Positions 19,648-22,116 of a DNA stretch of 30,752 nucleotides are shown here, piece after piece; the stretch's first letter is position 1; each line of letters starts with the position of its first letter. This stretch comes from Escherichia coli (GTDB lineage Bacteria; Pseudomonadota; Gammaproteobacteria; Enterobacterales; Enterobacteriaceae): assembly GCF_003334315.1 (NCBI RefSeq), contig NZ_QOWR01000055.1. One strand, given 5' to 3'. A program made the position numbers and the translations under genes. The notes under the pieces are model-generated. The model saw only the letters and a list, made by a program, of their open reading frames with translations, was not told the origin of the DNA and searched no databases.

Positions 19648-20640
19648 ATGCGACATAGCGTACTTTTTGCGACAGCGTTTGCCACGCTTATCTCTACACA
19701 AACTTTTGCTGCCGATCTGCCGGGCAAAGGCATTACTGTTAATCCAGTTCAGAGCACCATCACTGAAGAAACCTTCCAGACGCTGCTGGTCAGTCGTGCG
19801 CTGGAGAAATTAGGTTATACCGTCAACAAACCCAGCGAAGTAGATTACAACGTTGGCTACACCTCGCTTGCTTCCGGCGATGCAACCTTCACCGCCGTGA
19901 ACTGGACGCCACTGCATGACAACATGTACGAAGCTGCCGGTGGCGATAAGAAATTTTATCGTGAAGGGGTATTTGTTAACGGCGCGGCACAGGGTTACCT
20001 GATCGATAAGAAAACCGCCGACCAGTACAAAATCACCAACATCGCACAACTGAAAGATCCGAAGATCGCCAAACTGTTCGATACCAACGGCGACGGAAAA
20101 GCGGATTTAACCGGTTGTAACCCTGGCTGGGGCTGCGAAGGTGCGATCAACCACCAGCTTGCCGCGTATGAACTGACCCATACCGTGACGCATAATCAGG
20201 GGAACTACGCGGCGATGATGGCCGACACCATCAGTCGCTACAAAGAGGGCAAACCGGTGTTTTACTACACCTGGACGCCGTACTGGGTGAGTAATGAGCT
20301 GAAGCCAGGGAAAGATGTGGTCTGGTTGCAGGTGCCGTTCTCCGCACTGCCGGGCGATAAAAACGCCGATACCAAACTGCCGAATGGTGCGAATTATGGC
20401 TTCCCGGTCAGCACCATGCATATCGTTGCCAACAAAGCCTGGGCCGAGAAAAACCCGGCAGCAGCGAAACTGTTTGCCATTATGCAGTTGCCAGTGGCAG
20501 ATATTAACGCCCAGAACGCCATTATGCATGACGGCAAAGCCTCAGAAGGCGATATTCAGGGACACGTTGATGGTTGGATCAAAGCCCACCAGCAGCAGTT
20601 CGATGGCTGGGTGAATGAGGCGCTGGCAGCGCAGAAGTAA
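19648..20640 (+). CDS. proX: Glycine betaine/proline ABC transporter periplasmic binding protein ProX
   Basis: ORF 19606..20640; ATG at 19648 ([21 protein letters not shown]...) gives 330 aa with a signal peptide. Confidence 0.94.
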
Positions 20641-20650
20641 TTTTTATTCG

Positions 20651-20840
20651 GGCGGATAAGGCGTTTTTACCTCATCCGCCGCTCTGTACACAATGCCTGA
20701 TGCGACGCTGGAGCGTCTTATCATGCCTACAAAATACACTCATTCCGTATGGCGGATAAGGCGTTTTCGCCGCATCCGTCGTTCTGTGCACAATGCCTGA
20801 TGCGACGCTGGCGCGTCTTATCATGCCTACAAACCACATC
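20651..20840. repeat. Two tandem about 100-bp BIME/REP units downstream of proX
   Basis: Unit 1 starts at 20651 and unit 2 at 20751 (ggcggataaggcgtttt...gcacaatgcctgatgcgacgctggngcgtcttatcatgcctacaaa), near-identical with a few substitutions; contain REP-like palindromic cores. Confidence 0.7.
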
Positions 20841-20931
20841 GCACATTTCAACAATCTATCTTTCATCCCATATTCATCAACATCCGCTATTATTGATTTC
20901 CAGCTTAATCATCACCTGATGAACAAAAATA

Positions 20932-22116
20932 ATGACTAAACCTAATCATGAGCTTAGCCCGGCGCTGATCGTGCTGATGTCTATCGCCACCGGTCTGGCG
21001 GTAGCCAGTAACTATTACGCCCAGCCATTGCTCGACACCATCGCGCGTAACTTTTCCCTTTCCGCCAGTTCGGCAGGCTTTATTGTTACCGCCGCGCAGT
21101 TGGGCTATGCCGCAGGTCTACTGTTTCTTGTTCCCCTCGGTGATATGTTTGAACGCCGCCGCCTGATTGTCTCGATGACCTTACTGGCGGCATGCGGCAT
21201 GTTGATTACCGCCAGCAGTCAGTCGCTGGCGATGATGATCCTCGGTACGGCATTAACCGGTTTATTCTCAGTCGTGGCACAAATTCTGGTTCCGCTGGCA
21301 GCGACGCTGGCTTCACCGGATAAACGCGGCAAAGTGGTTGGCACTATTATGAGCGGTCTGCTGTTGGGGATCTTGCTGGCACGGACAGTTGCCGGATTGC
21401 TGGCGAATCTCGGCGGCTGGCGCACCGTCTTTTGGGTTGCTTCGGTGTTAATGGCACTGATGGCGCTGGCATTATGGCGTGGTCTGCCACAAATGAAATC
21501 AGAAACCCACCTCAACTACCCACAGTTGTTGGGTTCCGTTTTCAGTATGTTTATCAGCGATAAAATTCTGCGTACCCGCGCGTTGCTGGGCTGCCTGACC
21601 TTTGCCAATTTCAGCATTCTCTGGACCTCAATGGCCTTTTTGCTTGCCGCTCCACCTTTTAACTACAGCGATGGTGTCATTGGTCTGTTTGGACTTGCGG
21701 GAGCTGCCGGAGCGTTGGGCGCTCGTCCGGCGGGCGGTTTTGCCGATAAGGGCAAATCGCACCACACCACAACTTTCGGTCTGCTGCTGCTATTACTTTC
21801 ATGGCTGGCGATCTGGTTTGGTCACACTTCCGTACTGGCGTTGATTATCGGAATCCTGGTGCTGGATCTCACCGTGCAGGGCGTGCATATCACTAACCAG
21901 ACGGTAATTTATCGGATACATCCTGATGCGCGCAATCGCCTGACCGCAGGTTACATGACTAGCTACTTTATTGGCGGTGCCGCCGGTTCGCTAATTTCAG
22001 CCTCAGCCTGGCAACATGGCGGTTGGGCTGGCGTTTGTCTGGCTGGCGCGACGATTGCCCTGGTTAACTTACTGGTCTGGTGGCGAGGTTTTCATCGTCA
22101 GGAAGCCGCAAATTAA
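20932..22116 (+). CDS. ygaY: MFS-family transporter YgaY, apparently intact (394 aa)
   Basis: Uninterrupted 394-aa ORF with about 12 hydrophobic segments, located between proX and ygaZ. Confidence 0.8.
   Translation: MTKPNHELSPALIVLMSIATGLAVASNYYAQPLLDTIARNFSLSASSAGFIVTAAQLGYAAGLLFLVPLGDMFERRRLIVSMTLLAACGMLITASSQSLAMMILGTALTGLFSVVAQILVPLAATLASPDKRGKVVGTIMSGLLLGILLARTVAGLLANLGGWRTVFWVASVLMALMALALWRGLPQMKSETHLNYPQLLGSVFSMFISDKILRTRALLGCLTFANFSILWTSMAFLLAAPPFNYSDGVIGLFGLAGAAGALGARPAGGFADKGKSHHTTTFGLLLLLLSWLAIWFGHTSVLALIIGILVLDLTVQGVHITNQTVIYRIHPDARNRLTAGYMTSYFIGGAAGSLISASAWQHGGWAGVCLAGATIALVNLLVWWRGFHRQEAAN

Follow-up and report, generated by a model that had tools for sequence, protein, structure and literature searches.

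A two-unit BIME-2 array downstream of proX in Escherichia coli, its recurrent change in unit number and its probable part in the 3' end of the proVWX mRNA

The proVWX (proU) operon of Escherichia coli is followed, in the DNA analysed here, by two near-identical units of about 100 bp. The window, meaning the whole stretch that was analysed, comprises 30,752 nucleotides of contig NZ_QOWR01000055.1 (assembly GCF_003334315.1). This arrangement raises the question of which repeat family the units belong to, how two of them came to stand in tandem at this site, and whether they have a part in forming the end of the mRNA that precedes them. The account that best fits the evidence, and which is considered likely, is that of a two-unit BIME-2 that goes back to an old local duplication, has undergone recurrent turnover of its units, and provides with its first hairpin the 3'-end structure of the proVWX mRNA.

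The array is extragenic and lies between the stop codon of proX (TAA, 20638-20640) and the start of ygaY (ATG at 20932), directly after proX as the first-pass annotation had placed it. Annotation was available from MG1655 and from E. coli CP53, a genome that is 100% identical across the 800-bp locus query (window 20341-21140), and both give the gene order nrdHIEF-proV-proW-proX-array-ygaY(MFS)-ygaZ-ygaH-emrR(mprA)-emrAB. In the window and in most of the genomes sampled ygaY is an intact ORF of 394 codons, while in K-12 it is a frameshifted pseudogene. Farther along the window are the sRNA MicA (83.9 bits; 27425-27496, plus strand), near luxS and gshA, and two tRNA genes of the tRNA-Arg/Ser cluster (30410-30483 and 30685-30752, both on the minus strand), the second of which is cut by the window end. 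The features at the locus are as follows:

19648-20640, plus strand: proX coding sequence, 330 codons and TAA, last gene of the proVWX (proU) operon; from the ORF list and the RefSeq annotation of MG1655 and of the genome identical over the 800-bp query
20641-20650, plus strand: spacer of 10 nt between the stop codon and the start of pairing in the first REP hairpin; from the sequence and the hairpin limits
20651-20680, canonical palindromic-unit orientation on the minus strand: Y-type REP of unit 1; from the REP pattern scan and the inverted repeat
20681-20693, plus strand: head-to-head short linker of unit 1, GCTCTGTACACAA, 13 nt
20694-20730, plus strand: Z2-type REP of unit 1, TGCCTGATGCGACGCTGGAGCGTCTTATCATGCCTAC, with an intact CTAC tail (20727-20730)
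20731-20750, plus strand: tail-to-tail linker, 20 nt, a junction present only in alleles of at least two units
20751-20780, inverted: Y-type REP of unit 2, a well-formed hairpin; from the REP scan
20781-20793, plus strand: head-to-head short linker of unit 2, GTTCTGTGCACAA, 13 nt
20794-20830, plus strand: Z2-type REP of unit 2, with a CTAC tail (20827-20830)
20932-22116, plus strand: ygaY, MFS transporter gene 3' of the array; from the ORF list and annotations

According to Tandem Repeats Finder there is one array, 20651-20833, with a period of 100, 1.8 copies, 91% matches, 0% indels and a score of 317, which makes it by far the strongest repeat in the window, all remaining rows scoring 40 or less. 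By repeat search, two 88-nt copies (20651-20738 and 20751-20838) are offset by exactly 100 nt and 90% identical. They are arranged head to tail and agree at 79 of 88 positions without indels; the chance probability of such agreement is about 1e-31 per offset and about 1e-24 when corrected for all positions and offsets. The earlier description of two near-identical units starting at 20651 and 20751, each with REP-like palindromes and together showing a 100-bp periodicity, is borne out by these results, and the substitutions that it quoted between the copies are found as written. The extent it gave, 20651-20840, is right at its start and too long at its end, as the similarity fades at about 20833-20838.

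In each unit a 13-nt linker separates an inverted Y-type REP from a Z2-type REP. The Y REP is a 30-nt imperfect palindrome that reads GGCGGATAAGGCG...CATCCGCC on the plus strand in inverted orientation, and the 37-nt Z2 REP reads TGCCTGATGCGACGCTGG(A/C)GCGTCTTATCATGCCTAC on the same strand. As RNA, the Y REP of unit 1 is the first hairpin of the proX 3' untranslated region. It carries two substitutions (ACCTC vs GCCGC) that make the upper stem weaker, and in place of a GTAG tail it has TTCG. Mismatches also occur in the stem feet of both Z2 REPs; that of unit 1 is a locus-specific C.T mismatch (ATCATGCC vs ATCAGGCC) which is flagged in the Rfam alignment. The tail-to-tail linker ends in a degenerate Y tail, GTAT (20747-20750), which reads GTAG in related Escherichia lineages. 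The predicted hairpin energies are, in order, -16.6 and -14.4 kcal/mol for Y and Z2 of unit 1 and -19.7 and -14.8 kcal/mol for those of unit 2, and the fold of the whole region has a z of -4.4 against shuffles. The single other REP cluster of the window, at 6548-6623 in the gabT-gabP intergenic region, pairs a degenerate Z-like REP (TGCCGGAGGCGACGCTGCGCGTCTTGTCCGGCCTAC, plus strand) with an inverted Y REP (GTCGGATAAGGCGTTTACGCCGCATCCGAC) in tail-to-tail arrangement. It is followed by AATCTGTACG, which is similar to the head-to-head linker of the proX BIME.

Two classes of BIME have to be distinguished for the assignment. BIME-1 combines y and z1, occurs singly and has a long L linker, in many cases with an IHF site, and BIME-2 combines y and z2 with a short linker in tandem copies, the number of which differs by locus and strain (Ton-Hoang et al. 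2012). The array has Y and Z2 REPs in alternating orientation (Y on the minus strand and Z2 on the plus strand, as aligned to REP325 units and the Rfam consensus), a short S-type linker of 13 nt in both units, tandem copies in strain-variable number (alleles of zero, one, two and three units), and an extragenic position at the 3' end of a transcription unit. It is a two-unit BIME-2, and K-12 carries the same element, annotated as REP193, in one copy. The element was thus already known and belongs to an ordinary class of E. coli repeats, the REP193 annotation, 84 bp that 'contains 2 REP sequences' (Rashid et al. 2023, Nat Commun, Supplementary Data 1A), being older than this analysis. Converted to genome coordinates, REP193 is NC_000913.3 2808131-2808214 in MG1655, which corresponds to window 20647-20730.

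The Rfam model RF02564 (naRNA4), which is built on one Y-Z2 unit of REP325, matches the plus strand at 20650-20727 in unit 1 (59.6 bits) and at 20750-20827 in unit 2 (71.4 bits), both above the gathering score of 59.5, and reaches only 35-36 bits on the minus strand; such matches indicate the same class of DNA element and say nothing of a shared HU-binding RNA function. Together with the Y-Z2 architecture they uphold the original identification as BIME/REP. An assignment to BIME-1 (RIB, RIP) was rejected, the Z REP being the 37-nt Z2 form with a core identical to that of the REP325 Z2 and the linker being 13 nt long. The statement that such arrays bind IHF fails for this one: the IHF consensus WATCAANNNNTTR has no match in 20600-20940 at zero or one mismatch, and no such site is to be expected, since the L linker to which IHF binds is found in BIME-1 and the array is a BIME-2. 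Gyrase, which had been named together with IHF, would be the relevant partner for a BIME-2, and its binding at the proX array is plausible.

Unit number was surveyed in 5,426 complete E. coli genomes, all of which were matched by the 800-bp locus query. In an even-spaced sample of 60 records, 59 matched the locus and fell into three kinds: a match span of 799-800 bp, corresponding to two units (19 records); a span of 697-700 bp, corresponding to one unit (34 records, with K-12, O157:H7 and O104:H4 among them); and a span of 961 bp with 75% of the query covered, corresponding to a different allele (6 records). For the whole survey, a 60-mer centred on the junction between unit 1 and unit 2 was used. 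It is always chromosomal, occurs essentially once per genome and marks one locus, and it identifies two or more units in 1,758 of the 5,426 genomes (32.4%). Three units are present in 3 genomes, as found with a synthetic junction-unit-junction query. In the one three-unit strain that was verified, PS1Thumoskin9, the additional unit reproduces unit 2 and its junction without change, which points to a recent amplification. About 3,100 genomes (~57%) have one unit, a number obtained from the 4,858 genomes that cover at least 80% of the query minus the junction carriers, and 548 of 5,426 (10%) carry a REP-less allele with an unrelated insert of about 365 bp at the site. The alleles of zero, one, two and three units confirm that copy number varies between strains, and the survey provides population-scale figures for one locus.

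The insert of the REP-less allele is exemplified by E. coli EC581, where it occupies the same proX-ygaY site (L002 601-965). About 1,430 other genomes have, downstream of yegH, a copy of its core of about 210 bp with about 83% identity (L087 1501-1710). Both copies of the core give matches to the Rfam TwoAYGGAY RNA motif of 28 and 31.5 bits, which lie below the gathering score of 43. The first hairpin of the core shows compensatory changes in its stem, CGCGC/GCGCG vs CCCAC/GTGGG, around a conserved A(G/T)GGAT loop, and the core is without RefSeq annotation.

The two units share features by which they differ from other REPs. Both have a GGCGG/CCGCC stem foot (in full GGCGGAT...ATCCGCC) that is absent from REP325 and from the other BIME of the window, which read GCCGG/CCGGC, and both have the CTGT(A/G)CACAATG linker and the G to T change in the Z2 foot (ATCATGCC). 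Since these locus-specific features are common to both, the units are each other's closest relatives and the product of a local duplication; with an identity of 79/88 this agrees with the proposal of copies that arose by local duplication and later diverged. Arrival of the second BIME by a separate insertion from another site was rejected on account of the shared substitutions and linker and of a junction 60-mer that is unique to the locus. Changes private to unit 1 (CCTC, GCTCTGTAC) are common to the window, APEC O78, ETEC-2265, 2011C-3911 and Escherichia sp. E1V33. E1V33 represents a separate Escherichia lineage, and this sharing shows the duplication to be old. E. albertii has a single unit that is mostly unit-2-like, and one unit is probably the ancestral state for the genus.

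The single units within E. coli are of more than one kind. Among six single-unit alleles that were typed, that of K-12 is unit-2-like (1/6), those of O104:H4, 82.0312, Rb-23 and CP131 resemble unit 1 and run straight into the right flank (4/6), and that of O157 is a mosaic (1/6). As these alleles differ in kind, the one-unit state arose more than once. That the single-unit allele is simply ancestral within E. coli is unsupported as the sole history, given single units that are unit-1-like, unit-2-like or mosaic. The pattern is what would be expected from unequal crossover at varied points of a two-unit array, with the three-unit form as the reciprocal product. It follows that unit number has changed recurrently and is a homoplasious marker. 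The first-pass annotation had considered such arrays useful strain markers; the variation between strains supports this, and the homoplasy of copy number and the REP-less third allele in 10% of genomes speak against the use of copy number alone. Unit number by itself is thus unsuited as a lineage marker, given its repeated change.

The order of events could also have been different, with units 1 and 2 as old allelic forms of one unit that were later joined by unequal exchange. Unit-1-like and unit-2-like single-copy alleles would fit either order, and unit number is homoplasious under either history. The RAYT transposase needs GTAG beside the palindrome, and a RAYT model has been proposed to explain variation in copy number and linkers. 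At the proX locus GTAG is present for both Z2 REPs (as CTAC on the plus strand) and absent for both Y REPs. Homologous unequal exchange fully accounts for the expansion from two to three units and for the varied one-unit forms with no need for a transposase, and it is the simpler account of the recent changes in unit number because the Y REPs have lost the GTAG that RAYT requires. As a separate observation, SCPM-O-B-8794, a record titled E. coli that represents a divergent lineage (L007 ~3493-3700), has two units with a common private linker, CCATTCTGTACGTAATG, and a Z2 foot of the consensus form, ATCAGGCC, which indicates independent duplication or concerted evolution.

The position of the array also bears on the mRNA. 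Term-seq of K-12, which was done in LB on a strain with one unit and not under osmotic induction, gives map position 5308 as the 'base where most transcription terminates' (Rashid et al. 2023, Supplementary Data 1A). This base is position 38 of REP193, NC_000913.3 2808168 and window 20684, and it lies 4 nt past the Y hairpin, directly after CAUCCGCCGUUC. The authors of the Term-seq study reported 'nothing obvious' for a hairpin at the proVWX site and wondered about Rho, so that the site was left unlinked to a hairpin (Rashid et al. 2023). The Y hairpin of REP193, with a predicted -20 kcal/mol in K-12, sits exactly at it, which is the point of use for work on proU. The view that such arrays punctuate operons thereby receives support at this locus, the 3' end of proVWX in K-12 falling 4 nt after the first hairpin. 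A preprint on proU and ProQ makes no statement on the proX 3' region.

The hairpin is not an intrinsic terminator. A plus-strand hairpin followed by a T-run was not found in 20500-21000, and the hairpins of the array are followed by GCUC/GUUC and ACAAA without a U run, on which grounds a Rho-independent terminator was rejected; a scan of 20500-21000 likewise gave no sigma-70-like promoter. REP hairpins are recognised as protective 3' structures on Rho-terminated transcripts, which is a general pattern. Because the hairpin has no U-tract and REP hairpins protect transcripts of this kind, RNA polymerase would most likely terminate further downstream by a non-intrinsic, probably Rho-dependent process, and the RNA would then be trimmed 3' to 5' back to the first hairpin.

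E. albertii and every REP-bearing allele keep a spacing of about 10 nt between stop codon and hairpin. Translation is reportedly down-regulated, via ribosome stalling, when a REP lies no more than 15 nt past the stop codon. At the proX locus the last base of the stop is 20640 and the stem begins at 20651, so that the conserved 10-nt spacing falls within this limit, and the first hairpin may accordingly stall terminating ribosomes, trigger tmRNA trans-translation and lower ProX. Such a role is doubtful, with some chance of being right. In K-12 the proX transcript is more abundant than that of proV, which is uninformative on translation; stalling would be compatible with the role of the first hairpin as a 3'-end structure and not exclusive of it.

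A site past the proX stop with a palindrome is not peculiar to Escherichia. Nearly all of the 77 outgroup loci with usable downstream sequence (L009-L085, first ~70 nt past the stop) have a palindrome or terminator 10-30 nt past the proX stop. The Y/Z2 pair after proX occurs in Escherichia only; Salmonella and Citrobacter have REP types of their own. In Enterobacter, Lelliottia and Kosakonia, proX is followed by CCCTCTCCC...GGGAGAGGG palindromes, and Kosakonia sacchari (L029) has six REP-like palindromes at a spacing of about 79 bp. Trabulsiella, Yokenella, Siccibacter and Pseudescherichia have true intrinsic terminators. The proX 3' site seems to have served repeatedly as a landing place for the respective active REP family, and the genus-specific palindromes fit a conserved need for a 3' hairpin that would be filled by the active repeat family.

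The same observations can be read as those of a neutral or selfish element, that is, a decaying REP doublet (REPIN-like) at a permissive site, with copy number drifting by slippage and an incidental effect on the 3' end, one that any stable hairpin would have. Unrelated sequence in about 10% of genomes and different palindromes or plain terminators in other genera are in keeping with this, as are Y REPs without the GTAG needed for RAYT recognition and the stem mismatches in the upper stem of the unit 1 Y and in both Z2 feet. A merely decaying element is less easily reconciled with a hairpin at a near-constant distance from the stop across Escherichia and most genera, with a K-12 3' end right at the hairpin, and with the GTAG of Z2 (minus strand) that is intact in both units. 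Pure neutrality has a real but minor share of the probability. A selfish origin and co-option as a 3' hairpin are compatible, and this reading overlaps heavily with the preferred one.

A role at the level of DNA would be that of a strong, transcription-independent gyrase site, which absorbs the positive supercoils that arise from proU induction and insulates ygaY. The proU operon is a classic supercoiling-sensitive and strongly inducible operon. Gyrase cleavage sites are enriched in BIME-2, preferentially at Y REPs, and ygaY transcript levels are insulated from proU induction, both of which would be expected of such a site. On the other hand only a subset of BIME-2 is cleaved, those that are named being large arrays (sucC-sucB, tldD-yhdP), the accessible parts of the gyrase-mapping supplements hold no entry for proX or ygaY, and genomes without a REP at this site apparently cope. 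A dedicated gyrase site is considered unlikely.

Small RNAs of the naRNA4 type could also be processed from the units; by binding HU and bridging cruciforms they would link proU induction to nucleoid condensation. Both units exceed the RF02564 gathering score on the transcribed strand, which is a statement on sequence class and not on function, the Rfam model being that of a generic BIME-2 unit. The HU-dependent activity of naRNA4 needs two hairpins, which a Y-Z2 unit could offer, and most K-12 transcripts end before the Z2 hairpin, so that a two-hairpin RNA would be a minority species; nothing specific to the locus was found for this role. It is regarded as very improbable. Of similarly slight probability is a wider proposal, according to which the unit polymorphism (zero to three units, with a weakened first hairpin in some two-unit alleles) would act in cis on the 3' end of the proVWX mRNA, its half-life or translation termination, and hence on osmoprotectant uptake between lineages, or salt shock would set free naRNA4-like RNAs by which osmotic stress is coupled to compaction of the nucleoid through HU.

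The preferred account, of a BIME-2 with a 3'-end hairpin, can be put as a sequence of steps. A single Y/Z2 pair would have occupied the site since before the split of E. coli and E. albertii, and an old local tandem duplication of 100 bp would have given the two-unit array, which has since gained and lost units, presumably as the direct repeats recombined unequally or slipped. The array would be transcribed as the 3' untranslated region of proVWX, with the first hairpin as the structure that blocks exonucleases and defines the 3' end of the mRNA. We infer this 3' end for the two-unit allele by transfer from K-12, together with the mechanism of termination and any effect of the second unit. As the first hairpin of the window is weaker than that of K-12, the stable end in the two-unit allele might shift to a later hairpin. 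The other palindromes are probably either of secondary function, with gyrase or HU as possible partners, or neutral. Since about 10% of genomes have no REPs at the site, the BIME is not essential for proU function. For the repeat class itself this adds little beyond bookkeeping, a well-known class of repeat being found where it is expected, with the subclass corrected to BIME-2.

In comparison with named systems, the array resembles BIME-1, RIB and RIP elements in being an inverted REP pair at the 3' end of a transcription unit, and it differs from them by its long Z2, 13-nt linker and tandem repetition and by having no IHF consensus. With the REPIN substrates of the RAYT transposase (TnpA-REP) it shares the inverted REP doublet and the GTAG of Z2 (minus strand), and it differs in that both Y REPs lack GTAG, having TTCG and, at 20747-20750, GTAT. 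The proX sites of other Enterobacteriaceae have their palindromes at the same position, 10-30 nt past the stop, and presumably with the same role as a 3' hairpin, but these belong to families unrelated in sequence to the Y/Z2 of Escherichia.

Among BIME-2 elements, REP325 (the yjdM-yjdN BIME-2, source of naRNA1-6) has six units in MG1655 with the same order of parts and a 100-bp period (L086 2743-3399). Both arrays are built from an inverted Y, a short linker, Z2 and a tail-to-tail linker of about 20 nt that ends in the Y tail, and both have the same orientation to the upstream gene. The six units of REP325 are nearly identical, whereas the two at proX differ by about 9%. The linkers are different as well (AACGGTGCCGACTG in REP325 against CTGTACACAATG at proX), the tail-to-tail linkers having the Y tail TCCGTA(G/T)G in common and little else, and at proX both the stem feet of the REPs and the GTAG tails have partly degenerated. 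HU binding and effects on the nucleoid have been shown for REP325 only. The period of exactly 100 bp is identical in REP325 and in the proX BIME-2 (20651-20850) despite their unlike linker sequences. The closest relation is to REP193, which has the same locus, flanks and Y/Z2 pair and aligns over its 84 bp base for base to one unit of the window. K-12 has one unit where the window has two; the K-12 unit is unit-2-like with the left flank of unit 1 and one unit-1 base, and its first hairpin is the stronger, at -20.0 kcal/mol compared with -16.6 kcal/mol in the window.
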